The position numbers and the translations under genes were made by a program. This document shows, one piece after another, positions 5,868 to 33,965 of a stretch of 35,603 nucleotides of DNA; positions within the stretch are counted from its first letter, which is position 1, and every line of letters begins with the position of its first letter. Under the pieces are notes generated by a model that saw nothing but the letters and a program-made list of their open reading frames with translations, was not told the DNA's origin and made no database searches. The DNA comes from a virus (Duplodnaviria; Caudoviricetes), in the IMG/VR virus record IMGVR_UViG_3300035105_000087, positions 1-35,603 of that record. One strand, 5' to 3'.

Positions 5868-6575
5868 TTAATGTTTTATGTTTCTAGCGCAAATTTTTTC
5901 ATGGCGAATGAACTTCAACACCTCGTTTATCGCGTAGTTCGCCCATCCCTTACTTACCCAGTCGGAATGTTTTTGTCCGTTCGCGTGTATGTTGAATACA
6001 TACGGAAAGCGATCCGATTCTGTAATCGGACACCACACCCCCTCGAAATTGATGTTCACGTCAGCCTTTGTTCCATCGCGATGTCGGAACCCCCAGTACC
6101 CGGAATTCCCTCTCGATATCAAAAGCGGGAGCCATTGGATCACTCTGTCAGACGTGGAACAGAAGTTGAAAACGGCCCGCACCTTTCTATACATCCGCTT
6201 GAAGTCATATGAGCAATGCAGAGTGCCTCCGAATAAGCATAGATATATGTTATCCCATATTTCGTCTGCTTTTTCCAGCGCCCTCGCTACAATGTGCGTC
6301 CCGTTTGAGTGCGCCATGATGATTACTTTTTCGTAGTCCCTGGAAAGCTCCTCGATCCGCTCTTTCAGCGTGTAAATAAGTGGGCGATGGATTGCGTGGC
6401 GTATCAGGGGGATGACCATGGTCCACGTTCCGACCATGCCATACCCGCCGTTGTAGACCTGCCCGGTATCATTGTTCTCGTTCAGCAACTTTCTGAACAT
6501 ATACTCATAATCGTCAGCATTGGACGACTTGGTGTTGATTCCATGCACAATGAGGTAACAATGATTGTTTTTCAT
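5868..6575 (-). CDS. Alpha/beta hydrolase (lipase/esterase-like) at lysis locus
   Basis: LIVHG oxyanion motif, AHSNG nucleophile elbow, SDRV acid, HSDW histidine. Confidence 0.85.
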   Translation of the reverse strand: MKNNHCYLIVHGINTKSSNADDYEYMFRKLLNENNDTGQVYNGGYGMVGTWTMVIPLIRHAIHRPLIYTLKERIEELSRDYEKVIIMAHSNGTHIVARALEKADEIWDNIYLCLFGGTLHCSYDFKRMYRKVRAVFNFCSTSDRVIQWLPLLISRGNSGYWGFRHRDGTKADVNINFEGVWCPITESDRFPYVFNIHANGQKHSDWVSKGWANYAINEVLKFIRHEKICARNIKH

Positions 6576-6919
6576 TTTCCCTTTTCCACGATCTGACCGA
6601 TAAGCGCAATCATGGTCTGGTTGTAGGTTTTAAAGTCCTCTCGGAGATCCTCGAAACCTTTTTCCATTGCTCGTTTCAACTCATCGAATTCGCGTTTCGA
6701 CTGCGAATGAATGATATCACAAGCGCCTTTTCTGACATAGCTGGCATCAACGTGGGCCTTATGCTCATCGAATCTTCTATACACGCCAGCCACGCTTTTT
6801 TCGCGTTCATCGCTCACCGCTTGTATCCTTCTGCTGTTGTCTGCGTATACCCTGTATATGAGACCAAGGAGTGCAATCGCGCCCCCTGATATTGTGATGA
6901 TGATGCTGGAATCCATCAT
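6572..6919 (-). CDS. Holin-like membrane protein (N-terminal TM + coiled coil)
   Basis: IIITISGGAIALLGLIY hydrophobic helix then charged coiled coil; last-but-one gene of late operon. Confidence 0.5.
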   Translation of the reverse strand: MMDSSIIITISGGAIALLGLIYRVYADNSRRIQAVSDEREKSVAGVYRRFDEHKAHVDASYVRKGACDIIHSQSKREFDELKRAMEKGFEDLREDFKTYNQTMIALIGQIVEKGK

Positions 6920-13873: not shown

Positions 13874-14623
13874 TCAAGGATAACTTAAAATGCTTCCTGC
13901 CCGCCATGTGCCGTTCGTGCAGGTGCCATCATAACCGTTTCCGCTTTGATCTTTCGCTGTTTCCCCGTTCGCCGCCGTGCCGTCACCGCCGTCGTCTAAT
14001 GGAAAATATCCGTCAGGATCAAGCCCCGCCTGCTCTCCATAATACCGCATTCGTGAGCTATAAATCGCCGCGATTTGTGTTGCAGTCAGGACAGAGGAGT
14101 AAATTTGAAGATCTTCTATGAGGCCCTTAAATATATTATTAGAATCAACCGCATTTCCTCCGATTCCTAAATCGCTATTATTGACATCGATATCATCCGT
14201 ATCGGATTTCGTCTCATAGAATTGTCCATTTATATAGAAATCACAGTCATCGGTACTATCACTATATGTCAAAGCCACGTGATACCATCGTCCCAACGTC
14301 AAACTGCTCCCCGTACCGTAGCACGTCACCCAATTCGCCCCATCATAAGCAATGAACCTCAAACTTGTTTCAGTGCCTGAATCCTGATTAAGATATAGAC
14401 TGTAATTTACATCACTGGCGCCAAACCCGCCCTTAATTGCGATGTAGTTCGTACTGTATGTCGAATTGTAAACAGGTTTGATCCAAGCACAGATAGATAC
14501 TGCATCTGGACAGTCTATAGAATCCCCACAGTTTATAAACGCCGAACTGCCATCCCCCTCCCATGCCGCGAAACACGTCCATGCGATTAAGCACGATAAA
14601 ATGAATACGAGAAATTTATTCAT
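13874..14623 (-). CDS. LamG/concanavalin A-like domain protein with signal peptide (putative receptor-binding protein)
   Basis: Start MNKFLVFILSCLIAWTCFA|A overlapping upstream stop; SICAWIK, WYHVALTY, FYING, FKGLIEDLQIYSSVLT LamG motifs. Confidence 0.85.
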   Translation of the reverse strand: MNKFLVFILSCLIAWTCFAAWEGDGSSAFINCGDSIDCPDAVSICAWIKPVYNSTYSTNYIAIKGGFGASDVNYSLYLNQDSGTETSLRFIAYDGANWVTCYGTGSSLTLGRWYHVALTYSDSTDDCDFYINGQFYETKSDTDDIDVNNSDLGIGGNAVDSNNIFKGLIEDLQIYSSVLTATQIAAIYSSRMRYYGEQAGLDPDGYFPLDDGGDGTAANGETAKDQSGNGYDGTCTNGTWRAGSILSYP

Positions 14624-15155
14624 CAGCCTGCCCTGCTTCGATAAGGTTTTGCACAGCGGCCACAAGATCAGACCAGTCACGGTTCGGTAATAATTCAATA
14701 TTCGATCCAGAGGCCGCATTTACCTGTGCGGCAATCTCGTTCACCTTGCTCCGAGTTTTCACCAATGAGTTCGTGATCAGCTTCAGAGCCGCACGAATCA
14801 GTTTTGATCGCCCATCGTTCGCCGAGATATACCCGATCGCTTCAGCACGACTGGTCGTTACCTGCGCCGCCTCTGCAGCCGCCTGCTCTGCTGCAGTAAT
14901 CGCGTCCTTCTCGGCTTGTGAAAGTTCCGTGAGTTCGCCGTCAACAACACGAAGCCATTTCGTTGACGTGGAAACCAAGATGTTCCGTACCGGGATATAC
15001 TCCGCATCCTCGTTGCGGTAAACAAGAACACGATCACCCTGAACAGCATTTCCGGTCAATCTTGCGGATGTGACCTTGCCTTCTTCATCGTACACGATGG
15101 ACACCGCCCCGAACGTCGAAACGCAAAATAACAGCATGGCAAGAAGTTTTTTCAT
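14616..15155 (-). CDS. Signal-peptide protein, tail-fibre assembly chaperone-like
   Basis: MKKLLAMLLFCVSTFG|A; KWLRVVDGELTELSQAEKDA then Ala-rich helix; directly after fibre gene. Confidence 0.55.
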   Translation of the reverse strand: MKKLLAMLLFCVSTFGAVSIVYDEEGKVTSARLTGNAVQGDRVLVYRNEDAEYIPVRNILVSTSTKWLRVVDGELTELSQAEKDAITAAEQAAAEAAQVTTSRAEAIGYISANDGRSKLIRAALKLITNSLVKTRSKVNEIAAQVNAASGSNIELLPNRDWSDLVAAVQNLIEAGQADE

Positions 15156-16873
15156 CAGCTTTGCTCCTCTAAAATAACACCAAGAATTTCGACGTCATCC
15201 GTGGCGTCATCTGCAGTTAACACGTCTCTCATCAAATGAAACCTGCATATATCGCCAGCCGCAATTTCGTCGGCCTGTGTGACTGTAAAAGTAATTTGCG
15301 CCACCCTCGGATATCCAGCTGGTTGATCCGTTGCGAGGTCATGGTCAACTGTCTGCACGGAATCGTATCCGTCCGAATTGAAGTCCTCGCTGTCGGAACT
15401 CGGGGTAGTCGCCATGAACTTCCCGTCAAACTCAACGTCTTTGTCCCCGCTCTGCGTTGTGGCACAGGAAAAAACAATCGTAACCAGGATATCGCCCCCC
15501 GCGTAATCGTTTCCCATAATGAACTGCCAAACGACTTCTTCGTCCGTGCTGTCATCGAAAAGCCCTTCCCATGGACGTTCTCCGCCGTCAATCGCCATCG
15601 GGTTCGTTATGTCACCGCCACCGAGTTTCCCGCTTTGAATAGGCAAGTCCAAACGCCAGAGTCCAGCACCGCCGCCGCTTGTCTCTAAATCATCCAATTT
15701 TTGCGCCACCTCCTGAACAGTATCATCGTTCCCATCGAGATTCCCGTCGAAGCCGCTTGCATCAACCGGTACATCAGCGGCGCTTACCTCCCCGGCACCT
15801 GTTCCCCAATTAATATGCGCGTCATCTATTGAATCATCGACGTACATATCGGAGTCGATGCTGTTGGCTTCACCGCCCTGAACGAAATCTGAAACATCGG
15901 AAAGCGTCGAATATAAACTCGCCTCATCGGTAAGCACCGGCTCATACACCCCAGAATGATTATGATCCCCTGCCGCGACCTGCGCCGCCCCTGTCCCCAC
16001 GTCCCCGTTCGTGTTCAGGTTTTCGTAGGTAACGCCGGACGCCTCGATGTATGTTCCGTCGCTTGACGTGTACACGGAAACACCAATCTGCGTTTCAAGC
16101 TCCGCTTCGGAATCGAGTTCCGCTTCCGTAATCACGTCCACCATCGAAAGCCCCGCCGCACCGTCGCTCACCGGAGCCGTTCCTGCGCCACCTGCGGTTG
16201 TCATGCTCTCAACGTTGTCATCCGTCACGTCGTCGTCGTCTAAAGCCCCGTCGTTGTTCGTATAAACATCCGAGGCATCTGAAACCTGTGTTTCAAGCTG
16301 TGCTTCAGTAAACGCATCAACATCGGTTATGACATGATTGTGCGAATCATCCGCAACGGTCGCCGTGCCGTCCTCGGCTATCGTCAAATCACCTGAAATG
16401 CTCTTGTTCTGCCAATTATCAGTAGCGGCCTGATATATCAAGACTTGCGCCGCAACATGGGAAGCAATCGCGACGTTCTGCAAATCGTCAATATCGTCAT
16501 CCGTCACGTCATCGTCATCAAGGGCGCCGTCGTTGTTGGTAAAAACGTTCGTGACATCGGCAAGGTCGCCCTCAAGTTCAGCCTCGGACGTTGCGCCTCC
16601 GCCGCTGTTGAGTTCCGCGAGAGTCAGCGCGCCGGATACCCCGTCCTCAAAACACATATTCCCGGAACCGTCCTTGTATATCTGCGTCGATGAATCCACG
16701 AGCCGCAAATACGAAGTGTAAACGTAATCGAAGTACCCATTCAACCATCGCTTGGCGGAAGTGCCGATCCCGCCCTCGCTGTCCGCACGCGGAACGATGC
16801 TTACCGTCGCCGCGTAGATGGACAGTAACATCATCACAATCAAACAGATAAATATCGGTTTTTTCATCATCAT
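15155..16873 (-). CDS. Acidic tail fibre-like protein with signal peptide and internal repeats
   Basis: MMMKKPIFICLIVMMLLSIYA|A; IVP...IGTSAKRW-x-x-GY fibre motif; ISGDLTI-x-x-DG-x-ATV, HNH motifs; beta-rich C-terminal head. Confidence 0.75.
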   Translation of the reverse strand: MMMKKPIFICLIVMMLLSIYAATVSIVPRADSEGGIGTSAKRWLNGYFDYVYTSYLRLVDSSTQIYKDGSGNMCFEDGVSGALTLAELNSGGGATSEAELEGDLADVTNVFTNNDGALDDDDVTDDDIDDLQNVAIASHVAAQVLIYQAATDNWQNKSISGDLTIAEDGTATVADDSHNHVITDVDAFTEAQLETQVSDASDVYTNNDGALDDDDVTDDNVESMTTAGGAGTAPVSDGAAGLSMVDVITEAELDSEAELETQIGVSVYTSSDGTYIEASGVTYENLNTNGDVGTGAAQVAAGDHNHSGVYEPVLTDEASLYSTLSDVSDFVQGGEANSIDSDMYVDDSIDDAHINWGTGAGEVSAADVPVDASGFDGNLDGNDDTVQEVAQKLDDLETSGGGAGLWRLDLPIQSGKLGGGDITNPMAIDGGERPWEGLFDDSTDEEVVWQFIMGNDYAGGDILVTIVFSCATTQSGDKDVEFDGKFMATTPSSDSEDFNSDGYDSVQTVDHDLATDQPAGYPRVAQITFTVTQADEIAAGDICRFHLMRDVLTADDATDDVEILGVILEEQS

Positions 16874-17226
16874 TCCTTTGGCATTATATCACCGTTACCA
16901 TCCAGTTCGTAATTTTTATCGAGTATTGTAAAAGACGCAAGTGGTTGAAGATCATTGTTGCCGTCTTCCTCGAAGCTTGTATCAATACTCAGACCATCAA
17001 CTGGCATCATATTACTATTGGCATCAAGCTCGAAAAGCCCACCTGAATAAAACCTGATTTCCTCAAGCGCATCTTCAACGTTCGTTGAATCGTACAAATT
17101 TTCATCATCATCAATACGAACGCGCTTGGCTTTTGTCGTGCCTGCATTCGCGATGGACTCGAAGGCTGCCCAAAAAATGCCAAGCCACACAATGAATATC
17201 ACGATTCTTAATTGACGAACGGTCAT
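16870..17226 (-). CDS. Small signal-peptide/N-anchor tail protein
   Basis: MTVRQLRIVIFIVWLGIFWAAFESIANA|G; STNVEDALEEI fibre motif; three F/YE-x-D-x-N-x-x-hMP repeats. Confidence 0.65.
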   Translation of the reverse strand: MTVRQLRIVIFIVWLGIFWAAFESIANAGTTKAKRVRIDDDENLYDSTNVEDALEEIRFYSGGLFELDANSNMMPVDGLSIDTSFEEDGNNDLQPLASFTILDKNYELDGNGDIMPKE

Positions 17227-17657
17227 GTTTCCACCGATACGACAAACGTCGCCGTTAAAGTTTCGTCGGAATCCGGGGCGAATCCAAGCGTGAACTTTCC
17301 TGAACTGGGGTCCGTTTCCATAACGTTCTCGGATTTCACAGGCGTTCCCCAGTCAAGATGAACCTGCAACGTGCCTGATACATAGGGAACGACAACACCA
17401 CCGTTCGTGGTGTAAAATACGGTTTCAGACCCGTCAGTCGTAGGAGTTACGCTTTGCATCACCTTGAAATTGTTCGACGTAAGCACCACGCCGCCTGACG
17501 AAGTATCGACGTTCACCATGTTAACGATATAATCCAACGCCTGATCGAGATCAGCATATATCTTCCGCAGATACTTCACTATAGCCGTGATTTCCGGGTT
17601 GCTTGACCGCGTTCCGGGTGGTTTCGTGAGCCTTGGCCTTGTGTATGAAAACGCCAT
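17223..17657 (-). CDS. Tail protein (helical N-terminus + beta-sandwich fibre-attachment-like domain)
   Basis: DGSETVF...YVSGTLQVHLD...FTLGFAP pattern; position after nozzle. Confidence 0.6.
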   Translation of the reverse strand: MAFSYTRPRLTKPPGTRSSNPEITAIVKYLRKIYADLDQALDYIVNMVNVDTSSGGVVLTSNNFKVMQSVTPTTDGSETVFYTTNGGVVVPYVSGTLQVHLDWGTPVKSENVMETDPSSGKFTLGFAPDSDETLTATFVVSVET

Positions 17658-19675
17658 TATCTGAAATGCTCCTGAATGTAAAACACGATTGAGTTTATCG
17701 TCACCGGATCAGCTACACCATGTCCAGAGATTTTGAACTGGAAATATCGTTGCCTGTTATTGCGAAGACTAAGTGGGTTCACATAGTCCTTGGAAAGGTC
17801 GAATGTTTTCGTTGTGCTTGCTGACGTAGGCATCTCCGTTGATTCTGCAAAATAACATTCGATATTTACCTCCGTGCTTGATGCAGTTTTAGCAAAGTTC
17901 AGCATCACCTTCCGAATTGTTTCCGACGGATACCGTGTCAGGTCGAATATTTTCGACGTCCAGTGCCATCGGATACCACCGATTTCATAAGTCCATCCAA
18001 CTTGCGGTGTATTCGTCCAGTTTGTATCCACGGTGATCACGGTGTCAGAGTTCACGGAGATTTTTTGTTCCTCGACGAACGCGCCGGAAGAATTGTACAG
18101 CTGAACGTAGCAATCTTTGAGTCCGTCATCCTCGTCATAGAAATCAGCTGAACTGTCAGTGATCGATGCGGCCCCTGCGCTTGTAATCGTACCCGTCAGC
18201 GTTCCTGTGGATGACCCACCGAGATTATTCCCGGTAAGAAGTTTATACACGAACCCGCCCACGGTCCCAATCCATGGTTTCTTCACGTCGTCACCGTCTT
18301 CTGTGGACTTCACAATTGCAATACAGTTTGCCCTGATCGGCCATGTCACCCATTCTTTCCAGTCCCAAAAGTACACGAGGATTCTGTCATTTTCGGTTTC
18401 ACCGCTTGACGTGTAAATCATCATGTAAGCGCGGATGTATTCACACCACACGCCTTCGCAGTATTCGAGCCTCGAAAGCTCGATTCCGTCAGCTTCCTTT
18501 TTGAGGTCAGGTCCAAGGAACTTCGCGTATTCACCGAAAGTCTGCCAGAGTTCTCCCTGCGGGGAAAGAAACAGCAGGCTACCTGTTTCCGGGATAGGTG
18601 CGATACTGAAATGCGATTTCGTCCCGATCTTCGTGTTGGATTCTCTGTAATCAAACTCGTCGTCATGGCTTTCACTAAGAAGGTAATGTGAATAGTTCTT
18701 GAATATACATGGCTGATCGTTAATCACTCCGCCACCGGAAAGTTCCGTTGGGTCTTCGGAATTGATGCGAAGATAAAAATCCGTCGGAAAACTCCACGGC
18801 AAAGGTTTGCCTGTAGTCGGGTGTTCCGCTGAATACTTAATAATCTGTTTGTCCCCGGTAATCAAATAACCAACGGAAGAAAGATCTGCACCGCCTTCGT
18901 AGTTCGATGATAATGTGATTGATGTACCTGAGTTTACCGCTGAAATAATGTACCCTCTGGACTCATCGTTGAAATAAATAGTCATTCCAACCATATTTGT
19001 TGTCCAATGAGTTGAGTTCCCGGTAACCGCTGTCGCTCCATCATTCACAGAAACCACCCCTGTGGAATACTCCCTGATCCCAAACGCTAAAATACGGTTT
19101 TTCGTCGCGATGAAATACCGATTCCATGGCGCATTGTAATTCAGGTAAGTTTGGGTTTGCGTTCCGTCCGCATTGGTTTCGAGCTTACCGAACGGATAAT
19201 TTGTGTCTCTGGTCAGTCCGTCATCTTCAAACGATGTCGTACCGATTTCGACGTTGCCTATGTAATAATACACGCTTCCGTCTTCCAACGTTGCGTAAAT
19301 CTTCAGGTTCGTGAATCCTGCGTTGTCAGCCGTCCCTGGGAGCGTAAGAACGACTTTATTGTTGGACAGGGTACCGGTGGTATAGATGGGTGAAGGATTT
19401 GTCTCGTGAGCGCTGTGAATGTCTCCGTCGCCCGCTGTGATGTTCGCTTCCGTGTAGAAATACTTCACCACGCCCGACATTGACCCCGCACCGGATTCGT
19501 TCGCGGTGATTGCCGTTGAAGGATCGTCGTGTTGCCACACGAACCCACTGTTTTTGTCGTAATACCTGGGGATGTTTTGCCCGTCCATCAGGTATGCGTA
19601 CCTGCGAAACTCCGTTATGACAGGTTTGATCCCGGAGTTCATTCCTGTAATGATTTCGGTGCTTGTACTACTCAA
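17657..19675 (-). CDS. Tail nozzle/stabilisation protein (P22 gp10/T7 gp12-like), lacking usual N-terminal segment
   Basis: Beta-propeller-type sequence, IKYS...PWSFP, IFK, IG-x-x-SHFSI, ILVY...W, W-x-SK-x-FDL; TTG start with GGAG RBS. Confidence 0.75.
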   Translation of the reverse strand: MSSTSTEIITGMNSGIKPVITEFRRYAYLMDGQNIPRYYDKNSGFVWQHDDPSTAITANESGAGSMSGVVKYFYTEANITAGDGDIHSAHETNPSPIYTTGTLSNNKVVLTLPGTADNAGFTNLKIYATLEDGSVYYYIGNVEIGTTSFEDDGLTRDTNYPFGKLETNADGTQTQTYLNYNAPWNRYFIATKNRILAFGIREYSTGVVSVNDGATAVTGNSTHWTTNMVGMTIYFNDESRGYIISAVNSGTSITLSSNYEGGADLSSVGYLITGDKQIIKYSAEHPTTGKPLPWSFPTDFYLRINSEDPTELSGGGVINDQPCIFKNYSHYLLSESHDDEFDYRESNTKIGTKSHFSIAPIPETGSLLFLSPQGELWQTFGEYAKFLGPDLKKEADGIELSRLEYCEGVWCEYIRAYMMIYTSSGETENDRILVYFWDWKEWVTWPIRANCIAIVKSTEDGDDVKKPWIGTVGGFVYKLLTGNNLGGSSTGTLTGTITSAGAASITDSSADFYDEDDGLKDCYVQLYNSSGAFVEEQKISVNSDTVITVDTNWTNTPQVGWTYEIGGIRWHWTSKIFDLTRYPSETIRKVMLNFAKTASSTEVNIECYFAESTEMPTSASTTKTFDLSKDYVNPLSLRNNRQRYFQFKISGHGVADPVTINSIVFYIQEHFR

Positions 19676-20769
19676 TTAAAGTTCTCCGTTGAAAATTTCC
19701 CGATTCGTTTATTAAAGTAATCGAGAAAATAAAGGTTCCCGGTATTCGAATCGATCTGGATTCTTCTTGGAAGGGCACATTGCTGGCTACCTGAGCCGGA
19801 TGTCAAATACGTAGCCCATCCGGCACCGCTCATCTCGAACCTCACGATTCGGTCATTCCCGGCGTCCGAGACGTAGAAATGTCCATCGTATTCAGCTATA
19901 CCACTCGGGGAGGACAATTCCCCGGCGTGCGGCGCCCATGAGGCACCGATATAGTCTCTGTCTGTCACGTCCAGCGTCGTCGCACACACGTAATCAGAGT
20001 CCGTCTCACAAAATACGACTCGCGGTTCGCCCTGGTATCCAGTGGCGCTGTACACGGCTGCAGTCATGTTCTCCCATCCGTAGTCCATGCGGACGTCGTG
20101 AGTGAAAGCCCGGTCACATTCGACGATTTCGTCGGTGCTGTAGTCAGTCAAATAAAAATATCCTGTATCTGCGGAATAAAAAATGTCCCTAACGTAGGCG
20201 AATCCCTCCGGATTGATGTCGATCTTGTCCCATCCCTCCCCGCCGAACTTGACCTTGATCCAGTTCGTGTAATTATCGATGATGTGCAGGTATCCGTCGC
20301 CATCCATCGTCATCGCCTGAATGAGCTGGAACTGATCCTGTCCGGACCCGGCGCTCCCGTATTCTTCCCGCTGGTATCCACCCCATTTCATACGGACGAT
20401 TTTGTTCCTCTGGGCGAGGTAGAACCACCCGTTTTCCGTGTCCACGTAAAATGTTTTGATGACAGCCGTCGGATCTTCGGAATCCACAAGAACGTCCCAG
20501 TCAAGAAACGCCGGTCCTTTGTATACCGTGCCTCCTGACACAGTGAACAAGTTTTCATTCGGAGACGTAGAACTTCCGAGTTGATGGATGGCATCGATCT
20601 GAGAAGAATGCCCCAACGTGGACCATTTTGTCATTCCCCGCATATTCAACATCTCACCCCGTCTTTGCAGATTTACGCCTGATGCGTGTGTCGCTATATT
20701 CGACTTGATATCGACTGAATCAAGTCCGACAACCTGTCCACGGAATTCGTTTATTTCGATTGTTTTCAT
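19672..20769 (-). CDS. Nozzle-N-terminus-like segment fused to NHL-repeat beta-propeller (365 aa)
   Basis: GSAGSGQDQF, LSSPSGIA...YVSDAGNDRIVRF, GSGSQQCALP NHL motifs; first ~85 aa similar to 20769-21866. Confidence 0.75.
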   Translation of the reverse strand: MKTIEINEFRGQVVGLDSVDIKSNIATHASGVNLQRRGEMLNMRGMTKWSTLGHSSQIDAIHQLGSSTSPNENLFTVSGGTVYKGPAFLDWDVLVDSEDPTAVIKTFYVDTENGWFYLAQRNKIVRMKWGGYQREEYGSAGSGQDQFQLIQAMTMDGDGYLHIIDNYTNWIKVKFGGEGWDKIDINPEGFAYVRDIFYSADTGYFYLTDYSTDEIVECDRAFTHDVRMDYGWENMTAAVYSATGYQGEPRVVFCETDSDYVCATTLDVTDRDYIGASWAPHAGELSSPSGIAEYDGHFYVSDAGNDRIVRFEMSGAGWATYLTSGSGSQQCALPRRIQIDSNTGNLYFLDYFNKRIGKFSTENFN

Positions 20770-21866
20770 TAGAAGATATCCGCTATCCGAACCTTTGAAT
20801 TCCCTTTGTCACCGACAACGAGATTTGAGTCCCCTTCAAAACCAACGTAGTCTATACTTGTAGAAAGACCTGTGAGGTATTCCCCGGTTTCGTCGCCATT
20901 GGAATCGATTTTCGCGACGCGATTATTATCAGGATCAGCCGCGTACCCGGAACCGTCATCGTTGTACGCAACTCCGGTATAATTTGTTTCTTTAGACGTA
21001 CTGTAGATTTCTTCCATCGTGGACGTATTTATGATATGAAAATATCGCAACTCCGGAGACGGCTCGGTCCATGTGTAGCTGAAATATATATGGAGTGGTC
21101 CTACGAGCATTGAGAAATCCCGGCCCTGTGAGAATATCCAATTCAGCGCGACCGCATCGACTATTTTCGCGTTAAGCGACATTTTCATCACGCAACTGAA
21201 AAACCCCTTAACATCGCACCCGCCACGCCCCGCGAACAGGTATCCTCCGTAATACCATATCACCTGATAATTGTTGCAATCGATTGCCGTGCCGTCGGAA
21301 TACTCGATCTCAAGGGTTTCGTATGATTGAAAATCCGGTGGGATTTTATAAATATATCCTCCAGAAATCGCCCACCAGTACCCGGCGCCGTAGGTTATCG
21401 ATTTGTACGATGGAATTTCTATCCGTTCAAACCTTGGATATCGGCTCCGGGTCGGAAACCTGAAATTCACTGTCTCACCGCCGTATGTGCCGGATCCGAA
21501 CATCCATCCCCGGTCCGAATCGTAATGTAAAATCTCGACGTCGCTCCACCCGGTATCCCACTCGAAATCGTTGAATCCGGTTTCCCATCCGCCCCATTCG
21601 TGAGCGACCGCGCCGTTTTGCACAGTGAACACCGTCTCGCTTTCCGTTGTAGTATATCCGTGCTTCGGGAGTTGGTGGATTGCCATAATAGGGTATCCAG
21701 CCCCTACGGTGTCGGTTTTCACCATTCCGATGGTGTTGTTCAACGCGCCAAACGGATTGTCTATCCTGACGCCCTGCGCGGACGTTGCCTGGTCCCCATT
21801 GATGGCGACACCTGGTTTCAAAACGTTCACCCCCTTGAATTTACCAAGCTCGACGTGTTGAACCAT
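20769..21866 (-). CDS. Paralogous nozzle-N-terminus-like segment fused to a different beta-propeller (365 aa)
   Basis: Shared F-x-G, AT-x-A-x-GV, GM-x-K, AIHQL, FTV-x-x-G-x-V; C-terminal GVAY...YAADPDNNRVAKID NHL-like blades. Confidence 0.7.
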   Translation of the reverse strand: MVQHVELGKFKGVNVLKPGVAINGDQATSAQGVRIDNPFGALNNTIGMVKTDTVGAGYPIMAIHQLPKHGYTTTESETVFTVQNGAVAHEWGGWETGFNDFEWDTGWSDVEILHYDSDRGWMFGSGTYGGETVNFRFPTRSRYPRFERIEIPSYKSITYGAGYWWAISGGYIYKIPPDFQSYETLEIEYSDGTAIDCNNYQVIWYYGGYLFAGRGGCDVKGFFSCVMKMSLNAKIVDAVALNWIFSQGRDFSMLVGPLHIYFSYTWTEPSPELRYFHIINTSTMEEIYSTSKETNYTGVAYNDDGSGYAADPDNNRVAKIDSNGDETGEYLTGLSTSIDYVGFEGDSNLVVGDKGNSKVRIADIF

Positions 21867-21867
21867 G

Positions 21868-22803
21868 TCACGCTCTCCCGTAATCTCGACTCGCGCTACG
21901 ACGCGGACCGTTCATGATTTGATTGTATGGCGCTCTCTCACGCCTTGAGGAAGCAGTTTTTTCGATCCCGTACTTGTACTGCCTCGCACGCTGAAATACT
22001 CCCTCACGCGCCCCCATGAAGTCCTCGTACTGAATTTTTCCGTCCTTGAACTGCGCAATCAAAATCATATAGTCGATCACACAGTCGGAAAGCCGCTCGT
22101 TTATGATGTCGGAATCTTGGGCGGCGATATACGAACTCCCTGAAGCTACCGTGGCAGATGTCGTAATGGTAAGTTCTGTGTCTGAATCGACACTTTCGAT
22201 CTCGTAAAAATTGTCCGGGAAATCACCGTCAATGCCGAACAGGTACCCCGCTCCGATTTTGTCACCTGCTGAAAGCTCCGAATCCCAGGACGTCCCTGAC
22301 CCGGTGACGGTTGTGCCGGAAATAGTGATTGTTCCCGTGGAATAGTACCTGTAAAGCCGGGTATGCTTTCCACGATATTCGAGCTTAATGTAATCCGTTC
22401 CGCTGGAAAGAGATGAATCGTATGGATATAGACCGTACTTATTCTCCGCGAAATCCGGATACCACCAGCTTGGGGTAGATGAGTCGTCGCTCTGCCAATT
22501 CGGGTACTTTTCGTTTAGCTTTTGTATGTCGGTTGGATACAGTTCCTCGCGGTCGTCTACGTCGCCTGTCCTCGCGTAGTACACCCGGTCCAAGGCAGAA
22601 AGGTCCAGGCAGTCAGAAGGCAGACTGTAAAGCCTGGAGGTGGTTGCGTCCGTAACCGTGTTCTTGAATATACATCGTGCCTCGTTATTGATAGCGCTCT
22701 CTGCCTGGTCCACCCACCTTTTCAGCAAAGATATGGAGAACCTGGCCTCGTCGGCCTCCCCGAGGATTTCATAAAACTTGTAGAAGTATTCCGCTAGGTT
22801 CAT
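21868..22803 (-). CDS. Head-tail adaptor protein with inserted beta domain
   Basis: Helical N/C termini, YSLPSD, P-x-WWY, GLYP, LEY motifs of podovirus adaptors; Thr/Ser/Gly-rich insert. Confidence 0.7.
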   Translation of the reverse strand: MNLAEYFYKFYEILGEADEARFSISLLKRWVDQAESAINNEARCIFKNTVTDATTSRLYSLPSDCLDLSALDRVYYARTGDVDDREELYPTDIQKLNEKYPNWQSDDSSTPSWWYPDFAENKYGLYPYDSSLSSGTDYIKLEYRGKHTRLYRYYSTGTITISGTTVTGSGTSWDSELSAGDKIGAGYLFGIDGDFPDNFYEIESVDSDTELTITTSATVASGSSYIAAQDSDIINERLSDCVIDYMILIAQFKDGKIQYEDFMGAREGVFQRARQYKYGIEKTASSRRERAPYNQIMNGPRRSASRDYGRA

Positions 22804-22825
22804 GACGTATACCTGTATGCGCATA

Positions 22826-22851
22826 GGGAAAGGTGCCGAAGCACCTCTCCC
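22826..22851 (-). terminator. cUUCGg tetraloop hairpin between head and tail genes
   Basis: GGGAGAGGTGC-TTCG-GCACCTTTCCC; weak U-tract so may be a processing/stability element. Confidence 0.55.
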
Positions 22852-22873
22852 CGTTCGCTGTTATGCCTCCGGT

Positions 22874-23326
22874 TCACTTGTTTTTCCCACTGGCTTTGTT
22901 ACCGAGCCCATCGTTCAAACCAACTTTTCCCCTGGAAGGCGGGAAAGTTTTAGGTTTCCGTTTGGGACGAAGACCGAGCTTACTCCTGAGTTCCTCTTTC
23001 TTATTCTCGCTTTCGATCATGGTTTCGCGCTTTTCATTGATCTTCAGTTTTTCGATGTCCCGGATGATCTGTACACGTTTTTCCATGGCGGCCTTGTTTA
23101 TTTTGCCCTGGTTTTTCACGCCGTTATTGTAAGCGTCCTCAGTGACCACCGTCAGGTATCCGGGGAACCTCTTTGAGCAGATGTTGAACAGCTTCAACGG
23201 GATTTTTCCGAATCGGTTTTCACGGCTGAAAAAATACCGTTTCCGGTTGTGGTCCTGCGAGAATATATCTCGTTTCCCGTCATACCGGACAAAAACAGAG
23301 TCTACTGTATTTCTCTCGATTTCCAT
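22874..23326 (-). CDS. Basic hypothetical protein
   Basis: AGGAG RBS, same strand, in head operon. Confidence 0.7.
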   Translation of the reverse strand: MEIERNTVDSVFVRYDGKRDIFSQDHNRKRYFFSRENRFGKIPLKLFNICSKRFPGYLTVVTEDAYNNGVKNQGKINKAAMEKRVQIIRDIEKLKINEKRETMIESENKKEELRSKLGLRPKRKPKTFPPSRGKVGLNDGLGNKASGKNK

Positions 23327-24341
23327 TGTACTTCTCCTGTGATTTCACGATAAAAAGTCCGATCAGCGAGGCCATGGTGAACCACATCCTCGTGATCTCA
23401 AACGGATATTCAATGATGGACAGAAGCGCAATTGCCACCATGGACAGCGACAAAGGGTCGCGACCGATCCTGGTTTTCAGTTCGTTCATTAGGCCGATAA
23501 CATAAAGTGCCCCGAATATCCCGGACCCGAAAACAAACTGCAAAACGCTGGAATGTATTGCGTAGTCCACGCTGACAACGCGCTCACGTCCTGGAATTGT
23601 ACCCAGTCCGAACCCGCGAAGAGGAGCCTTGAAAAACAGCTTCAAAAATTTCCCCCACACGTCGAACCGAATCCTTAAAGATTCCAATATATGTTCCCGA
23701 AGAAACACAGCACCGGCAACTGCCAGCACGATTAACGATCCTCGCATGTAAACGTTCCTGACCCGGCAAAACACAACAACGGCGGCCACGCCTATAATCG
23801 CGCATTGAGGATCTCCCGCGAGGCTTATGCCCACACAGGCAAGGAACATCGGAATCGAGATGTCCCACATGATTGGCAATATTGCGGCCAGGTACGTCGA
23901 TAGCCGGGGGGAGTTTCCCATCAACCCTCCGGGATGAGATTCAGGGGTCGTGTCGAGAACCGGGCTGAACCCGGCTTTTTGCATCAGGGCCACGCTGATA
24001 TTGATCATCGCACCGATGGCGATCCAACGAAAATACTCTTCGGGTGTATCAGCGTACATCGTCACCACGCACACGATGAACATGAATATCGATGCGTTCA
24101 GGCACCAGTACATTACAGCGTTGTCTAGGTTGTGCATGAGAGCGTTCAAAACCACCAGCATCCCGAACGGAATCACCAGTATATTCGGTGCATCACGTTT
24201 CGGTGGTTCGATCAACGCGCACATTCCAAGAACGATCGCGCACAGGTGAAAAAATTTCGCATCGAAATTATTCAGCGAATGACCAGGCAAATATCCGATC
24301 ACACTTAACAGCAGGAACGCCTTGATCATAAACGATGCCAC
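23280..24341 (-). CDS. O-antigen ligase / O-oligosaccharyltransferase-like polytopic membrane protein (Wzy_C/WaaL fold)
   Basis: About 10 hydrophobic helices; ALMQ-x-x-G, GLMGNSP, S-x-x-x-R-x-x-VW, PLRGFGLG, HSSVLQ...GIFG, EYPF; GTG start after AAGGAGG. Confidence 0.85.
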   Translation of the reverse strand: MASFMIKAFLLLSVIGYLPGHSLNNFDAKFFHLCAIVLGMCALIEPPKRDAPNILVIPFGMLVVLNALMHNLDNAVMYWCLNASIFMFIVCVVTMYADTPEEYFRWIAIGAMINISVALMQKAGFSPVLDTTPESHPGGLMGNSPRLSTYLAAILPIMWDISIPMFLACVGISLAGDPQCAIIGVAAVVVFCRVRNVYMRGSLIVLAVAGAVFLREHILESLRIRFDVWGKFLKLFFKAPLRGFGLGTIPGRERVVSVDYAIHSSVLQFVFGSGIFGALYVIGLMNELKTRIGRDPLSLSMVAIALLSIIEYPFEITRMWFTMASLIGLFIVKSQEKYNGNREKYSRLCFCPV

Positions 24342-24429
24342 AGCGCCGCCTCCTTTATCCAGAACGGGATGGCGATCACGACGACAACTGCCGTGAACAG
24401 CATCGCCATAAATGAATCGAGGATCACGA

Positions 24430-24451
24430 GGAGGGGAGATTGCTCCCCTCC
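24430..24451 (-). terminator. Hairpin downstream of capsid/decoration genes
   Basis: GGAGGGGAG-CAAT-CTCCCCTCC perfect 9-bp stem; no U-tract. Confidence 0.45.
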
Positions 24452-24489
24452 CCATGAATACCCCAAGAACCTGTCAAGGTCGCCCTTCA

Positions 24490-24999
24490 TTAGGTCTCGT
24501 ATGTGACGTATACACCAACGTCAGCGTCCACAACATCAACGTAGACTTCGTTCGTGAACGAAATACCTTTCGGAAACACAAGATGTTTCGAGTCGGCTGC
24601 AGTGCCAACCTTTACATCGAGTTTCGCATTTCCGCTTGTCGCGGATTTCGCGGCATTGGTATCGTAGAATGCCACCCAGTCACCAGCACCTGTACCCGTT
24701 ACCGTAATGGTCGCTAACTTCGCACCGGTGGAAATCAGCGCGCCATCAGCGGCGACACCGTGTACCATCTGCGCGTCACTGGCGTTGTTGTTTTGGTTGA
24801 TCAATACGGCACCGTTGGAATCGACTTCCGCGAGATACCCGCCGTCCAGGTCCGCAAGGACGCCATATCCCTGGAACCCGGTACGGGCTGCGCTCTTCAT
24901 GTTCACGTCATCTGTGGAGCTTACGGCTGCGTACAGGCTAAGCGCGATCAGCACCACGGCCAAAGTGTACGCTCCGATGTTAATGATTTTCGATTTCAT
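24490..24999 (-). CDS. Capsid decoration-like beta protein with signal peptide
   Basis: MKSKIINIGAYTLAVVLIALSLYA|A; beta-rich body (FYD, FPKGISFTNEVYV); immediately after capsid gene with GGAGG RBS. Confidence 0.65.
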   Translation of the reverse strand: MKSKIINIGAYTLAVVLIALSLYAAVSSTDDVNMKSAARTGFQGYGVLADLDGGYLAEVDSNGAVLINQNNNASDAQMVHGVAADGALISTGAKLATITVTGTGAGDWVAFYDTNAAKSATSGNAKLDVKVGTAADSKHLVFPKGISFTNEVYVDVVDADVGVYVTYET

Positions 25000-25030: not shown

Positions 25031-26314
25031 TTACGAGATGGTCGCGGCTCCGGGAGGCGCGGAACAACTCATCATCACGCAGTAGTTCTTCACGCTGTCG
25101 TCGGACTCGAACAGAGCCTTGTCACCGAAGATCGTCTTGATCCCGATGCCCTGCTCCATGCCGTAGTCTTCGGTCTGCGTGATTTCCTTTGCGTACAAAG
25201 AATGCGCCCGCATCGCGGTACGCGCTCCGAACGCGATCTGCCTGGACTCGAACTTCCCATAAGCAACAAAATCACCCGTAGTGTATTCCGCCGCTGTACT
25301 CGTGGAACCTCCATAGGTCTGAGCACGGGAACACCCGGTGAACGAATATTTCGTCTTCCCGGTATAAGTGACGTATTCGACCGCACCGGTGGAGTTTTTG
25401 AGGATACACAACGTCCCGGTACTCGGGAAGTTCTGCGTATAGTCCTTGTTGTTGTTCGCTCCGACAGTGATCGTGCTGACGCCTGTGGTATGAGAGCCGT
25501 AAATTTTCGCGCTCGGGCGAAGATATGACCCCTGCATTCCGCGAATTGCCCTTCGGGGATAAATGATCATCCCGCCGATCATGCCGATCGCGCCGGGGAA
25601 CAGAGGATTATTTTTCCCGCGAATATTCGCCTCAGCGTTGGTTTCGTACCACCTGGCGTCGCCTTTAAGCCGATAGATGTCGAAACTGTCCAGGGCCACA
25701 CCGTAAACAGGATAATCGTTCCCGAATCCGTCGCCCGAGACTCGCAGGGGTTCCGCGCCCATCGTTTCCAGGGTAAGCTGAAGACGCTCAATTTCCGTCA
25801 CGCCGAACGTGCAGTCGGAATTGAGGTAGGTGCGGTCTGCGGCGTCGTTCGCGAACAGCGTGGTTTCGGACGAATAGTCCGTGTTGATCAACTGGTAGTC
25901 CATGTGGTAGTCTTTGTATCTGGCCATCCAGTCAGCGAGCATGTGTCCCGCGTGTTTGTACATCTTGAACAGGGAAAGATGCTCACCCCATTCGTTATAC
26001 GCCACCGCATGTCTGAATAGTCCGGTCTCGACGTAAAAGTTCCCGACGGTCGCCTTTTCCTCGTTGGCGGCCAGGGTGCTTTCGTTCGTGGTCGCCGACC
26101 CGTAAAGCTGCCCGACAGTAATGAACGTTATTTTCTGACCTGCTTTCTTGATGCGGGTGTCATCCTTTCGGATAATCGCCGTATCTCCGTATTCGTCGCC
26201 TTCGTGTTTCGACCAGAACTGTTTTGCCTGGGCATCGAAATACACTGCGTCGTCCCACCACTCCGGTTTCCCGTCAGAAAAATCCGAAGCGGTCATTGTG
26301 TTCAAAGTAGTCAT
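25031..26314 (-). CDS. Major capsid protein (N4-gp56/DUF4043-like) with inserted domain
   Basis: KKAGQKITF, L-x-x-NEE, RHAV, LADWMA, RGKNNPLF-x-GAIG, FGA, EDYG...GIG-x-x-x-IFG; after scaffold. Confidence 0.88.
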   Translation of the reverse strand: MTTLNTMTASDFSDGKPEWWDDAVYFDAQAKQFWSKHEGDEYGDTAIIRKDDTRIKKAGQKITFITVGQLYGSATTNESTLAANEEKATVGNFYVETGLFRHAVAYNEWGEHLSLFKMYKHAGHMLADWMARYKDYHMDYQLINTDYSSETTLFANDAADRTYLNSDCTFGVTEIERLQLTLETMGAEPLRVSGDGFGNDYPVYGVALDSFDIYRLKGDARWYETNAEANIRGKNNPLFPGAIGMIGGMIIYPRRAIRGMQGSYLRPSAKIYGSHTTGVSTITVGANNNKDYTQNFPSTGTLCILKNSTGAVEYVTYTGKTKYSFTGCSRAQTYGGSTSTAAEYTTGDFVAYGKFESRQIAFGARTAMRAHSLYAKEITQTEDYGMEQGIGIKTIFGDKALFESDDSVKNYCVMMSCSAPPGAATIS

Positions 26315-27489: not shown

Positions 27490-27852
27490 TTACGTCCTGA
27501 ATCGTCCTCTGTCTTTCTGCTCCGGCTGGCGCTCGCCTCGGAGCAATTCAATATTCTTAAACACCTGCTGCAGCATTTTTTCAGCGCGGTCTCCTTCTTC
27601 GATCCGGGCATCGATCAGCCTCGAAAACTTGCGGGCCGCATTCCACTCGTAACGGGAGCGGATGCAGTCAAGATTATCTTCCAGAGACCTCTCAGTTTTT
27701 ACCACCAGGTCTCTGATCAGCTTCTCGTAATAGATGAACTCAGGATATTCCATGAGCTTCTTGAGTCCGTTCCGCATCATAACATCATCTTCGAGGCGGT
27801 CCTGCAACTTCAGCAGATCTTCTATCTGATCATTAGTTCGCGTATCGCTCAT
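27490..27852 (-). CDS. Helical hypothetical protein after portal
   Basis: ATGA overlap with portal; conserved gene position in podoviruses. Confidence 0.7.
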   Translation of the reverse strand: MSDTRTNDQIEDLLKLQDRLEDDVMMRNGLKKLMEYPEFIYYEKLIRDLVVKTERSLEDNLDCIRSRYEWNAARKFSRLIDARIEEGDRAEKMLQQVFKNIELLRGERQPEQKDRGRFRT

Positions 27853-29939
27853 TCCATGCCACCTGCCATTGGCGTAAATTCGTCTTCATCAGGTACAGGG
27901 CGCTCACCAGCGGCGGCCTCCATAGCCCCAACATTACGGTTCAGTTCCTGATCAAGTTCCTGCTGTTCTCGTGCGGCCTGCTGTTCCTGGAAAATCTCCT
28001 GCATCGCCTGTTTCTGCATATTTAGCATATACTGCTGGTACTCCTCGACGGTTGGAATCGATTTGTTTACGTCAACATCACCCATCGCAATCAAAACCTC
28101 CTTGATGAGGTTCCTGCGATAATGGGGATGATTCATGACCATATCTTCTTGTGATAGAAGCTTGTATTTATCCAATACCTTGATGAGCCGGATGCGCTTG
28201 TCGTCGTGCGTAGCCCTGACCGTCACGTTCAGGTCGTGGTCAAGCGCAATAAGGTTCTCCATCTCCAGGCCACCGGCTTTCGCACCCATGACCCGCGTTA
28301 CGAATTCCTTGATTTTCGGGTCGTCTCTGGCATCTTTGGTGAGCATCTGCTTCCATATTCGGTATCGCTGGTAGAAAATCTTTCGTATGGACTCGGCCAT
28401 GTTCTTTTTGTACATATCGCGAGATTTCGCGCCTTCCTCCAGCAACCTAATGAGCCCACCAAGAGTTTGGTCGGATTTCGTCTCCATACCAACCGCAGGA
28501 TTCGGCAGACCGAAACGCGCCTGAATACGCTCGATCAACTGTTGTTCTTCATGGTAACTGTCAGAATCGTAAGTTGTGACTTTCTCCGTGCGAATAGCAT
28601 CCTCGCCAATATCCTCAAGCTCATCCCATACCGAGTTTCCATCGTTGTGAATCGCCCGGTTGAATCCGATGTTTCGCCTGACGTATCGGGTTGGCCTCGC
28701 GAATCTCTCCCTGGTAATCGCACGCTCGTTTCTCAGGTGATCGACGTAGCCTTTATCATCGAAATTCATCTCGGCGACACCGATGTTTTCGACGCTTTTC
28801 TCGATGTCGAATTTGATCTTGCCGGCGACAATCGGGCACATACCGTGATCGTAGGGGAAGCGTTCCCAGCCCAGGATCTGTTTGGATTTCGGGTGGCATA
28901 GCACCACGACGTGTTCCTCGAGGCCGTCGTTGTCAACATCGTATTTCCCGAATACCAGACACAGCTTCAACTTCTTCGTGCGGTATTCGGTCTGTGACCA
29001 ATTCAGCGTTTGCTTTTTGACCTCGGACTCGTCAACCGCGGTCTCTTTGAACTGGTTCACATGGTCTTTTAGGTATGCTTTCGAGACCTTTTTGAGCAGG
29101 GTTTTCTGGTCCTCGTCGCCGGTCTTGAGCATCGTCATGATCTCGTTCGCCGTCTTGTGCAGTTCCAGGCCGACGTACCCGGTCTCAAACGCATCATCGA
29201 GGCTCTCGGCATCAGGAGACCAGAACACGCGCTTGCTGTGGACGCAGATGGTTCTCGGGCCGTACCGTTTCCATCGCCAGGTTTTTTCGGTCGTGGTTGA
29301 CCGCATGACATTCGGGAGGCGCATCAGGATCTCGTCAGCCTGCGGGGAAACTGGAATGGGCTGTTCGCCCTCAACGCTGACCGGCATCAGGTTCTCATCA
29401 ATCCCGGTGACGGGTACATCCGTCCCGTCCTCGCCAACCACGGAATATGAGTCGTACTCGATCTCGTGCCGCTCTTTGACCTTCTCCGCGAAAGTATACG
29501 CAAAGCTCGTCCCGAGACCAACCGCTTTGTAAACGTAACGATAAAGCTCCTCCCTAATTTCGTCGTTAGCGTTCGCATCCCAAGCCATCAGCGTCCTGCC
29601 TGATGCCTCGATTTGCTCTTTCTGCTCGTCGTCAGCACCGACAGCCTCGACGTCGATTGGCTCGTTGTAGTCAAAAAGGTCTTGCACCAGGCGAGGCGAA
29701 ATAGAATCGGCCATCGTCATGGTGACGTCCGATGAAAAATTCGGGGCGCCATCGTAGGGATCAGTTCGTTGGTATCTGAGCATCCTCAGATCCATCCCCC
29801 ATTTGTCCAGCTTGTCGTGGAAGGTATCGTGAACGTGCTTTATTCCGTCCTCGGCACACTGGACGAAATAATCGCCCATTTCATCCTCACTGAACTTGCG
29901 CTGAAAAATGCTTTCCTGACTGTTATCTGGATTTCCCAT
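27849..29939 (-). CDS. Portal protein (P22-like)
   Basis: 696 aa after TerL; DVDNDGLEE, PYDHG-x-x-P, T-x-GG-x-x-x-L motif, Q-rich C-terminal barrel. Confidence 0.88.
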   Translation of the reverse strand: MGNPDNSQESIFQRKFSEDEMGDYFVQCAEDGIKHVHDTFHDKLDKWGMDLRMLRYQRTDPYDGAPNFSSDVTMTMADSISPRLVQDLFDYNEPIDVEAVGADDEQKEQIEASGRTLMAWDANANDEIREELYRYVYKAVGLGTSFAYTFAEKVKERHEIEYDSYSVVGEDGTDVPVTGIDENLMPVSVEGEQPIPVSPQADEILMRLPNVMRSTTTEKTWRWKRYGPRTICVHSKRVFWSPDAESLDDAFETGYVGLELHKTANEIMTMLKTGDEDQKTLLKKVSKAYLKDHVNQFKETAVDESEVKKQTLNWSQTEYRTKKLKLCLVFGKYDVDNDGLEEHVVVLCHPKSKQILGWERFPYDHGMCPIVAGKIKFDIEKSVENIGVAEMNFDDKGYVDHLRNERAITRERFARPTRYVRRNIGFNRAIHNDGNSVWDELEDIGEDAIRTEKVTTYDSDSYHEEQQLIERIQARFGLPNPAVGMETKSDQTLGGLIRLLEEGAKSRDMYKKNMAESIRKIFYQRYRIWKQMLTKDARDDPKIKEFVTRVMGAKAGGLEMENLIALDHDLNVTVRATHDDKRIRLIKVLDKYKLLSQEDMVMNHPHYRRNLIKEVLIAMGDVDVNKSIPTVEEYQQYMLNMQKQAMQEIFQEQQAAREQQELDQELNRNVGAMEAAAGERPVPDEDEFTPMAGGME

Positions 29940-32379: not shown

Positions 32380-32544
32380 ATGAGCGCAAAATCCATGAGA
32401 GACGCCCTATGGTGCATTGCCAACATGCAAGTCACTACGGAAACCGATACATCCGAGGTTCTGGCATTGTGCATGTCCATCGCTCGAATAGAACTGGAAA
32501 AATTTTCAGCGGAAGGTGATCAGGAACCGGGAAACAACGTGTAA
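32380..32544 (+). CDS. 54-aa hypothetical protein
   Basis: AAGGAGG RBS, first gene after promoter. Confidence 0.7.
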   Translation: MSAKSMRDALWCIANMQVTTETDTSEVLALCMSIARIELEKFSAEGDQEPGNNV

Positions 32545-32547
32545 CCC

Positions 32548-32602
32548 TTTCCCCGCAGGGTTGGACTCCCTGCGGCACCTAGACCGGCGGCGCGCCGGGG
32601 GA
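32548..32602 (+). repeat. 55-bp intergenic structured repeat, copy 1
   Basis: Identical to 33966-34020; hairpins CCGCAGGG/CCCTGCGG and CCGGCG/CGCCGG. Confidence 0.9.
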
Positions 32603-32638
32603 GTGGAAAACCAAAAACGAAATGGAGGAAAAAAGAAA

Positions 32639-33067
32639 ATGAAAATCGGTGATAAACGTTATGGCGTTGACGGGAAAAAAATCCGAACGGGGATCGTTGT
32701 GGAGGTTCCCGGGTTTGGGCTAGGTGTAGATTGGGGTTGGGACCATTTCTCTGGTAGGCCTGCAATAAATTTGAATCTTGGCTATGCAGATATAAAACAG
32801 GCCGAAATTGAGCTAGAACGTCAAAATAGGGAATTTGATGTTTGGCGAAAAAAACGAAATATTGAATTAAAAAACAGGGAAATTAAACGCAAAAAACTCG
32901 AAACAAAACAAAAAAAATGCCTCCACAAAAATACCTACTGGGGCAAAACACACGAGGATATTGAAGCCGATCGATACATCGGCGGTATAAACGAAACGCT
33001 GTTCTGTGCGTATTGCGGTATGTGTTTGGACGTGGAAGCGCGGGAGGTCATGGCATGGGAAATGTAA
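32639..33067 (+). CDS. Hypothetical protein (beta N-domain, coiled coil, C-x-H...C-x-x-C)
   Basis: GGAGG RBS before ATG at 32639. Confidence 0.75.
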   Translation: MKIGDKRYGVDGKKIRTGIVVEVPGFGLGVDWGWDHFSGRPAINLNLGYADIKQAEIELERQNREFDVWRKKRNIELKNREIKRKKLETKQKKCLHKNTYWGKTHEDIEADRYIGGINETLFCAYCGMCLDVEAREVMAWEM

Positions 33068-33100
33068 TGGACTCAAAAAAAATGAAGGTGTTTTAAAAAA

Positions 33101-33226: not shown

Positions 33227-33242
33227 CTGTACTGGAGGCAAT

Positions 33243-33703: not shown

Positions 33704-33748
33704 CAACGCCATCAACACGGATGCGGCCAAATAGCGGCCGCACCGGTT

Positions 33749-33964: not shown

Positions 33965-33965
33965 A

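Follow-up and report, generated by a model that had tools for sequence, protein, structure and literature searches.

The question raised by the virus record IMGVR_UViG_3300035105_000087 is whether a tailed phage can complete its particle with parts that have left the cytoplasm. The record (Caudoviricetes; linear, 35.6 kb, approximately 51% complete) was analysed whole, and its 35,603 nucleotides are referred to below as the window. Tailed phages assemble in the cytoplasm. In the head and tail operon of the window, five accessory genes (SP1 to SP5) open with secretion-signal-like N-termini, and a polytopic membrane protein with the predicted fold of WaaL, an O-antigen ligase, is encoded in the head operon; it can therefore be argued that outer parts of the particle likely mature outside the cytoplasm. 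We propose, at a probability of roughly one in three, a two-compartment assembly line, in which capsids (many of them, across the family, tethered by pilin-type leaders) would be made in the cytoplasm, cement and fibre proteins would be secreted and glycosylated by a phage enzyme of the GT-C type, and a WaaL-fold or a TMTC-fold protein could fill the enzyme slot interchangeably, giving particles coated with host sugar, as in a eukaryotic virus that uses the secretory pathway. The capsid and tail core would be assembled in the cytoplasm late in infection; the cement-like jelly-roll and the fibre and lectin proteins would be sent through the host Sec pathway and cleaved; the WaaL-fold protein would transfer a host glycan from its lipid carrier onto some of them; and the exported parts would meet and join the particle once the membrane fails at lysis. 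The original prediction for this locus had proposed a scheme of this kind, and overall it is partly supported.

The N-termini were scored with our own rule-based Sec/signal peptidase I (SPI) heuristic, not SignalP, which looks for a basic N-region, a hydrophobic core and small residues at positions −3 and −1; the cut-off was 30. A Sec/SPI signal was called in 5 of the 23 genes tested, exactly SP1 to SP5, and in 0 of 1385 random internal starts taken from transmembrane (TM)-free regions. When 35 genes of the window were scored, the sole additional score, 27 and under the cut-off, fell on the first helix of the WaaL-fold protein. All five N-termini that had been claimed for the late genes are present on the minus strand (arrows mark the predicted cleavage sites): SP1 starts at 24999 (MKSKII...LSLYA↓A, with GGAGG upstream), SP2 at 17226 (...SIANA↓G), SP3 at 16873 (...LSIYA↓A), SP4 at 15155 (MKKLL...STFG↓A) and SP5 at 14623 (MNKFL...WTCFA↓A). 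The SP5 signal was scored from the ATG at 14623 alone, a start that overlaps the 3' end of the gene before it, and not from the longer open reading frame (ORF) start at 14719. Lipoprotein and Tat readings of the five were rejected by inspection, as there was no lipobox and no twin arginine. Cleavage and export of SP1 to SP5 through Sec are thus predicted with high confidence. No signal was called in the capsid, adaptor, probable portal or probable nozzle, and signal-like N-termini in the window are confined to accessory genes. The earlier labels for these core genes stand in part: those of the capsid (PF13252) and adaptor (PF24175) are backed by family matches, and those of the portal and the nozzle are given by position and size only, as is the label of the ejection-type genes.

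The same arrangement is found across relatives, which were gathered by capsid or nozzle similarity only. The set comprised 75 loci whose capsid ORF measured 340 amino acids or more, forming 49 clusters at 90% identity that are 28–41% identical to the window; left out were short matches to an internal domain, loci in which the capsid was cut, and one locus with a capsid of another type (L174). Genes were called with our own caller, and a nearby alternative start was permitted equally for all genes. Of the 48 clusters holding a gene directly 3' of the capsid gene, 46 have a signal peptide on it, against a background of 9/519 upstream genes, 1/49 capsids and 0/7 nozzles, and the fibre-slot genes of relatives likewise have signal peptides. 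The observation is confirmed: it extends across the family and lies far beyond chance expectation, and the export route that it predicts is well supported by sequence. Also in agreement with the original prediction, a Wzy-like gene, homologous to that of the WaaL-fold protein, co-occurs with the exported proteins. Where 2.5 kb or more of downstream DNA is available (39 clusters), it lies downstream in 33, and no more than four genes from the capsid gene in 32. The profile used was partly built from these loci, and its hits are strong and independently tied to PF04932. One copy was present in each of the five near-complete genomes searched (5/5), and the gene is co-oriented and tightly packed within the head module, between the cement-like and adaptor genes.

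In the window, the gene for this 353-amino-acid Wzy_C/WaaL-fold polytopic membrane protein occupies positions 23280..24341 of the minus strand. Its placement in the same operon as the exported proteins was correctly predicted, and the fold assignment is supported; its start is most likely 24341, not 24455, with a GTG after GGAGG at which the homolog P0002 also starts. Against Pfam Wzy_C (PF04932), the window protein reaches E 0.0078 and 16.4 bits, under the cut-off of 31.7; the relatives L016 and L019 are above it, and 68 of 140 members match at E ≤ 0.01. Wzy_C accounts for 28 of 30 Atlas matches, and a homolog search in 1.84 billion representatives returned 211 clusters (50% identity) at E ≤ 1e-30. 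The profile of a 141-member family matches a single PDB sequence, WaaL 7TPG (E 1.5e-12). The structural model (predicted local distance difference test score, pLDDT, 94) aligns to WaaL with a Foldseek E of 6.5e-6, a TM-score of 0.62 and a VIA Z of 22.1 (root mean square deviation, rmsd, 4.0 over 314 residues), and the next-best fold, SEDS, reaches Z 11.4. By name, 20 homologs were either 'hypothetical protein' or 'O-antigen ligase' only. The modelled WaaL fold is thus supported, and the protein likely binds a polyprenyl-linked host glycan.

In the alignment to WaaL, Arg225 falls on the WaaL arginine and His263 on the histidine of the WaaL His-Asn motif. Arg225 is kept in 140 of the 141 homologs, and further polar loop residues are conserved to differing extents (Asn114 in 136, Gln121 in 130, Arg318 in 97 and Glu311 in 82). 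Glu311 might be the counterpart of a glutamate in PglS. In PglS, which shares the WaaL-like core, H324A serves as the inactive control and a glutamate is also important (PMC12800693).

The Wzy-like gene is linked to the capsid gene in position and broadly follows it in descent. Wzy and capsid distances are correlated (Mantel rho 0.59, p 0.0005, 29 loci; 0.70 for cement), as is expected of a resident morphogenesis gene, and several capsid clades reappear in a quick Wzy tree. The protein itself has evolved far more rapidly than the capsid, with nearest-neighbour identities of 15–63% vs 40–90%. In two diverged phages, the gene is split at the same place into two overlapping ORFs (L008:10510-11483 and L012:11559-12535), and no common slippery run was seen in the two split genes.

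The Wzy-like gene is missing in 6 of the 39 clusters. In one of these, L195, a 487-amino-acid protein with a membrane part and tetratricopeptide repeats (TPR) lies in its slot (L195:12241-13704), behind the capsid gene and two exported jelly-roll genes and ahead of the small gene and the adaptor. It is unrelated to the Wzy family by profile (hhalign 1.7%) and has a DD motif after TM1, an ERxxY motif and a C-terminal TPR region; DD and ERxxY are invariant in 41 aligned homologs and are described as TMTC motifs (PMC7801869). The SHKSYRP motif is absent (YRP occurs in 1 of 56 homologs, not in L195), there was no DUF1736 match, and a weak PMT_2 match was obtained (E 0.011). JGI gives two of the 56 homologs the name protein O-mannosyl-transferase. 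As two unrelated lipid-donor glycosyltransferase folds would then occupy one slot, the job of that slot may be glycosylation outside the cytoplasm; this is the best hint of such a job.

The exported proteins themselves, all encoded on the minus strand, fall behind the capsid and behind the nozzle. SP1 (24490..24999) combines its signal peptide with an 8-strand jelly-roll domain and is cement- or decoration-like; its family is conserved right behind the capsid gene in one to three paralogs, which share a C-terminal domain modelled as an 8-strand jelly roll (pLDDT 85). The model aligns to the cement protein of phage KHP40 (7DOU) with Z 6.3 and rmsd 3.0 over 85 residues (Foldseek E 0.012); its top match is nucleoplasmin (Z 7.3), none reaches Z 8, and the cement match is no better than those to unrelated jelly rolls. 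SP1 of the window had no match among PHROGs. Weak lectin matches, the only ones of the SP1 profile against PDB sequences, were taken as chance. In several lineages that lack the Wzy-like gene (L088-L093, L096 and L014), the exported post-capsid protein is lengthened by a long stalk or repeat to 289–496 amino acids. A 54-codon ORF (24326..24490, minus strand), whose ATG overlaps the SP1 stop, has one hydrophobic stretch and no homolog among the proteins of the relatives.

Behind the nozzle, a 144-amino-acid protein without a signal peptide (17223..17657) precedes SP2. It had no family or PDB match; a small signal-less gene lies behind the nozzle in relatives as well, and the protein may be a cytoplasmic docking stub for the exported fibres. 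SP2 (16870..17226) has an acidic mature part of 90 amino acids, of which residues 32–58 match two unnamed phage families (phrog_7154, E 2e-5; phrog_4184, E 0.002). SP3 (15155..16873; 572 amino acids) is acidic and repetitive and lies in the fibre slot; its nearest Atlas clusters are viral (score 0.91, Uroviricota), which is a lead only. SP4 (14616..15155; 179 amino acids) had no family match in Pfam or PHROG. SP5 (13874..14623) has a LamG/concanavalin-A lectin domain and six cysteines in its mature part, and matches PF13385 (E 1e-26) and the virion structural protein family phrog_8510 (E 4e-13). Of 38 fibre-slot exported proteins listed for relatives, 34 were scanned against PHROGs; 7 of these match tail-fibre, baseplate or virion families, and two match unnamed families. 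Judged by slot and family match, the exported cement-like and fibre proteins are probably outer parts of the virion.

Glycosylation of these proteins by the WaaL-fold enzyme is the more tentative step, to which we give somewhat less than even odds. The Ser+Thr fraction is 0.20 in the exported proteins vs 0.16 in core proteins. Several results weigh against this step, or against the assembly line as a whole. Neither the Ser+Thr content of the exported proteins nor the occurrence of two sequons differed between loci with the Wzy-like gene (85 proteins) and loci without it (18 proteins), in tests whose p-values are not independent, the proteins being related, and no Cys pairing signal was seen. 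Pilin acceptors of the TfpO type carry a C-terminal Ser; this residue was found in 1 of 61 cement-like proteins and, within the window, in SP3 only. The C-terminal domain of PglL and PglS (Wzy_C_2 or PglL_A) was found neither in 140 members nor in the window, whose protein stops soon after the last helix in the model. The histidine that WaaL and PglS need, which the window has at position 263, occurs in no more than 25 of the 141 homologs (mostly Phe or Tyr in the other 116) and in 2 of 31 locus-linked copies, one of them that of the window. The Wzy copies of the window and L007 cluster with those of a different capsid clade, which makes the gene apparently resident yet mobile. The TMTC-like replacement is a single case, and the membrane part of the L195 protein had no PDB match. 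In the five other clusters lacking the Wzy-like gene (L170, L221, L092, L014 and L223; 5/39, all fragments), exported parts are encoded and neither a Wzy-like nor an L195-like gene is present in the available DNA; since export signals persist in these clusters, export is independent of the enzyme. The designation of SP1 as cement comes mainly from its gene position, as its Z of 6.3 to KHP40 cement is not above that of nucleoplasmins, and 25 of the 34 scanned fibre-slot proteins match no PHROG.

In L170, a five-helix protein lies behind the fibre genes (L170:18812-19588), with no support from Pfam or NCBIfam; by its motifs, it may resemble a shortened GT-C. The L170 contig also has a GT4 gene.

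The exported proteins could be virion parts with the WaaL-fold protein acting on the host surface instead, late in infection, by O-antigen ligation or polymerisation or by pilin glycosylation, so that the receptor would be masked from progeny and superinfecting phage. We consider this unlikely, although it deserves serious attention: the closest fold, WaaL, is a lipopolysaccharide ligase, the published phage Wzy_C genes (D3, VarioGold; PMC9658991) serve serotype conversion, and both the rapid divergence of the Wzy-like protein and the lack of a sequon signal in the exported proteins agree with it. However, the VarioGold gene is reported to lie opposite to the late genes, beside the integrase (PMC9658991), whereas here the gene is co-oriented in the head module in 32/39 clusters and broadly follows the capsid tree. 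The protein that replaces it in L195 resembles the protein-modifying TMTC enzymes, which also argues for the proposed glycosylation of virion parts over action on the host surface.

Relatives carry a further feature that bears on membranes. Amphipathic leaders resembling those of Flp prepilins are carried by the capsid in 33 and by the scaffold in 14 of 49 clusters (e.g., L181:10001, L188:9053 and L095:556-1005), and none was found in the window; an A24 peptidase gene lies upstream in 10 of 49 clusters, all of one capsid clade. The capsid leaders may indicate membrane-linked assembly. They would also suit a WaaL-fold protein that is mostly no transferase and binds lipid-linked glycan, or forms a membrane platform holding exported parts near capsids, or drains the lipid carrier to aid lysis. 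The replacement of the histidine in 116/141 homologs beside a near-invariant arginine, and the splitting of the gene at the same place in two phages, are in keeping with such a role; the retention of the histidine in the window and the further conserved polar loop residues (Asn114, Gln121, Glu311 and Arg318) are not, and replacement by another glycosyltransferase fold in L195 suits a catalytic job better. We regard a non-catalytic role as improbable.

There is a small chance that the exported proteins never join the particle and form, with the transferase, a late-expressed surface-remodelling cassette of host-envelope adhesins or exclusion factors. The general rule of cytoplasmic assembly and the shortage of virion-family matches among the exported proteins would both be accommodated, but these proteins occupy the cement slot (46/48) and the post-nozzle fibre slot, 7/34 of those in the fibre slot match tail or virion PHROGs, and no large gene lacking a signal lies between the 144-residue stub and the ejection-type genes of the window. 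It is very improbable that the signals escape cleavage and serve as membrane anchors, the particle leaving with a full wrapping or a piece of host membrane that bears these proteins, for despite the leaders on capsids and scaffolds and the A24 prepilin-type peptidase of relatives, all five signals end in small-residue cleavage sites, the window has no leaders, and a DPBB lytic-transglycosylase-like protein in one complete relative fits ordinary lysis.

The minus-strand series of the window comprises the terminase (PF04466), probable portal, scaffold, capsid, SU10-type adaptor, probable nozzle and three ejection-type genes, and this layout, read from the genes, is that of a short-tailed phage. 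The major capsid protein is of the N4-gp56 type (25031..26314; 427 amino acids; PF13252, E 5e-10; phrog_334, E 3e-27) and has neither a signal peptide nor an N-terminal leader. Its residues ~260-350 (window 25250-25530) are taken up by an inserted domain, probably a surface domain, to which numerous unrelated phage proteins are similar (L022-L080). In three relatives (L182, L189 and L013), an ORF of ~190 amino acids, probably an intron endonuclease, breaks into the capsid gene close to its start. The portal had no match in Pfam, PHROG or PDB. Downstream of the WaaL-fold protein lie a small cytoplasmic head-module gene (22874..23326; a similar gene is in this slot in relatives without the Wzy-like gene), the adaptor (21868..22803; PF24175, E 7e-11), two proteins of 365 amino acids (19672..21866), of which that at 19672-20769 has weak NHL/beta-propeller matches, and the probable nozzle (17657..19675), which is kept in relatives and had no more than a short tail-module match. 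The adaptor, the two 365-residue proteins and the nozzle have no signal peptide, and all these genes are on the minus strand. In the strain variants L001 and L003, the two propeller-like genes (19672-21866) and the portal region (27490-29939) are swapped and the block from scaffold through capsid, SP1 and Wzy to adaptor is near-identical; because of this near-identity, the ratio of nonsynonymous to synonymous polymorphism (pN/pS) against these strains was uninformative.

After the ejection genes, at the position of a lysis cassette, a one-helix gene and a lipase-like alpha/beta hydrolase (DUF676, below cut-off) are encoded (5868-6919); no endolysin was identified among the window genes. At one end of the window (32516-35603, plus strand), several paralogous ORFs consist of repeated short units ('LPDxRYDxRLIDALI') in repeated DNA, which is rearranged in L002. 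At the other end (2-1124, minus strand), a Mom-family DNA modification gene (PF25680) adjoins a truncated helix-turn-helix (HTH)-resolvase gene, which we take to resemble an IS607 transposase. A promoter and terminator scan of the window gave results at chance level.

Among cultured phages, tblastn returned no match to the window capsid or to the Wzy homolog P0041, and partial capsid matches at 25–27% only with capsid P0021. GTDB genomes yielded seven loci, all short internal-domain matches, and no prophage of this phage family; for that reason no host is called for the window. Among 21 sequencing runs, all labelled oil-field metagenome and 18 of them flagged as possible sources, none was listed as holding RNA. 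For the L195 clade only, the homologs of its slot protein that have an organism label (4/4 Omnitrophica/Omnitrophota) hint at an Omnitrophota host. Omnitrophota have peptidoglycan and Tad pili (bioRxiv 10.64898/2026.06.07.730766), and almost no phage has been described for them (PMC13452462).

If the two-compartment scheme is true, it breaks the rule that tailed-phage particles are completed in the cytoplasm and gives phage virions a second way of becoming glycosylated, in which the surface glycan of the host itself is copied. Compact WaaL-fold enzymes would also come to light in large number (211 clusters); most of them lack the canonical histidine, and they bear on catalysis by this fold and on glycoconjugate engineering.

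In the full-text literature (mostly without subscription papers, and without supplements), no report was found of a tailed phage that exports its cement or fibres or encodes a ligase in its head operon, and the text of the HFTV1 preprint, considered as a precedent, nowhere mentions a signal, secretion or N-glycans. SP1 resembles the cement of the Helicobacter phage KHP40 in being a single jelly roll whose gene adjoins the capsid gene; unlike that cement, it has a signal peptide, and its fold score is no higher than to nucleoplasmins. Mycobacteriophage enzymes that glycosylate virions are reportedly soluble and cytoplasmic, unlike the membrane GT-C-type fold and exported acceptors predicted here from genes alone. 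Their targets are the capsid and tail tube, and the enzymes are phage-encoded, as described in PMC12619734 (citing Freeman et al. 2023).

The D3 and VarioGold serotype-conversion genes likewise encode a phage Wzy_C protein. The VG_p25 cluster of VarioGold pairs a Wzy_C protein with a signal-peptide gene; it resembles a moron and runs against the direction of the late genes (PMC9658991). In the present family, by contrast, the gene is family-wide, lies between the cement-like and adaptor genes and, judged by its tight co-oriented packing, has no transcription unit apart from the late genes. PglL, PglS and TfpO place undecaprenyl pyrophosphate (Und-PP)-linked glycans on exported proteins (PMC12800693). 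The phage proteins share their WaaL-like core and, in our proposal, their mode of action, and differ from them in having no Wzy_C_2 or PglL_A in 140 members and no sequon or C-terminal-Ser signal in the candidate acceptors. Compared with the WaaL of Cupriavidus metallidurans (7TPG/7TPJ; PF04932), the window protein has a similar fold (Z 22.1, TM-score 0.62), the aligned arginine and the histidine; the phage proteins are smaller (~350 amino acids), only 15–17% identical, without the histidine in 116/141 and encoded in a phage head operon. The L195 protein alone invites comparison with the protein O-mannosyltransferases TMTC1-4, from which it differs as a bacterial or phage homolog lacking SHKSYRP and a DUF1736 match, and with which it shares the membrane domain followed by TPR, the DD after TM1 and the ERxxY motif.

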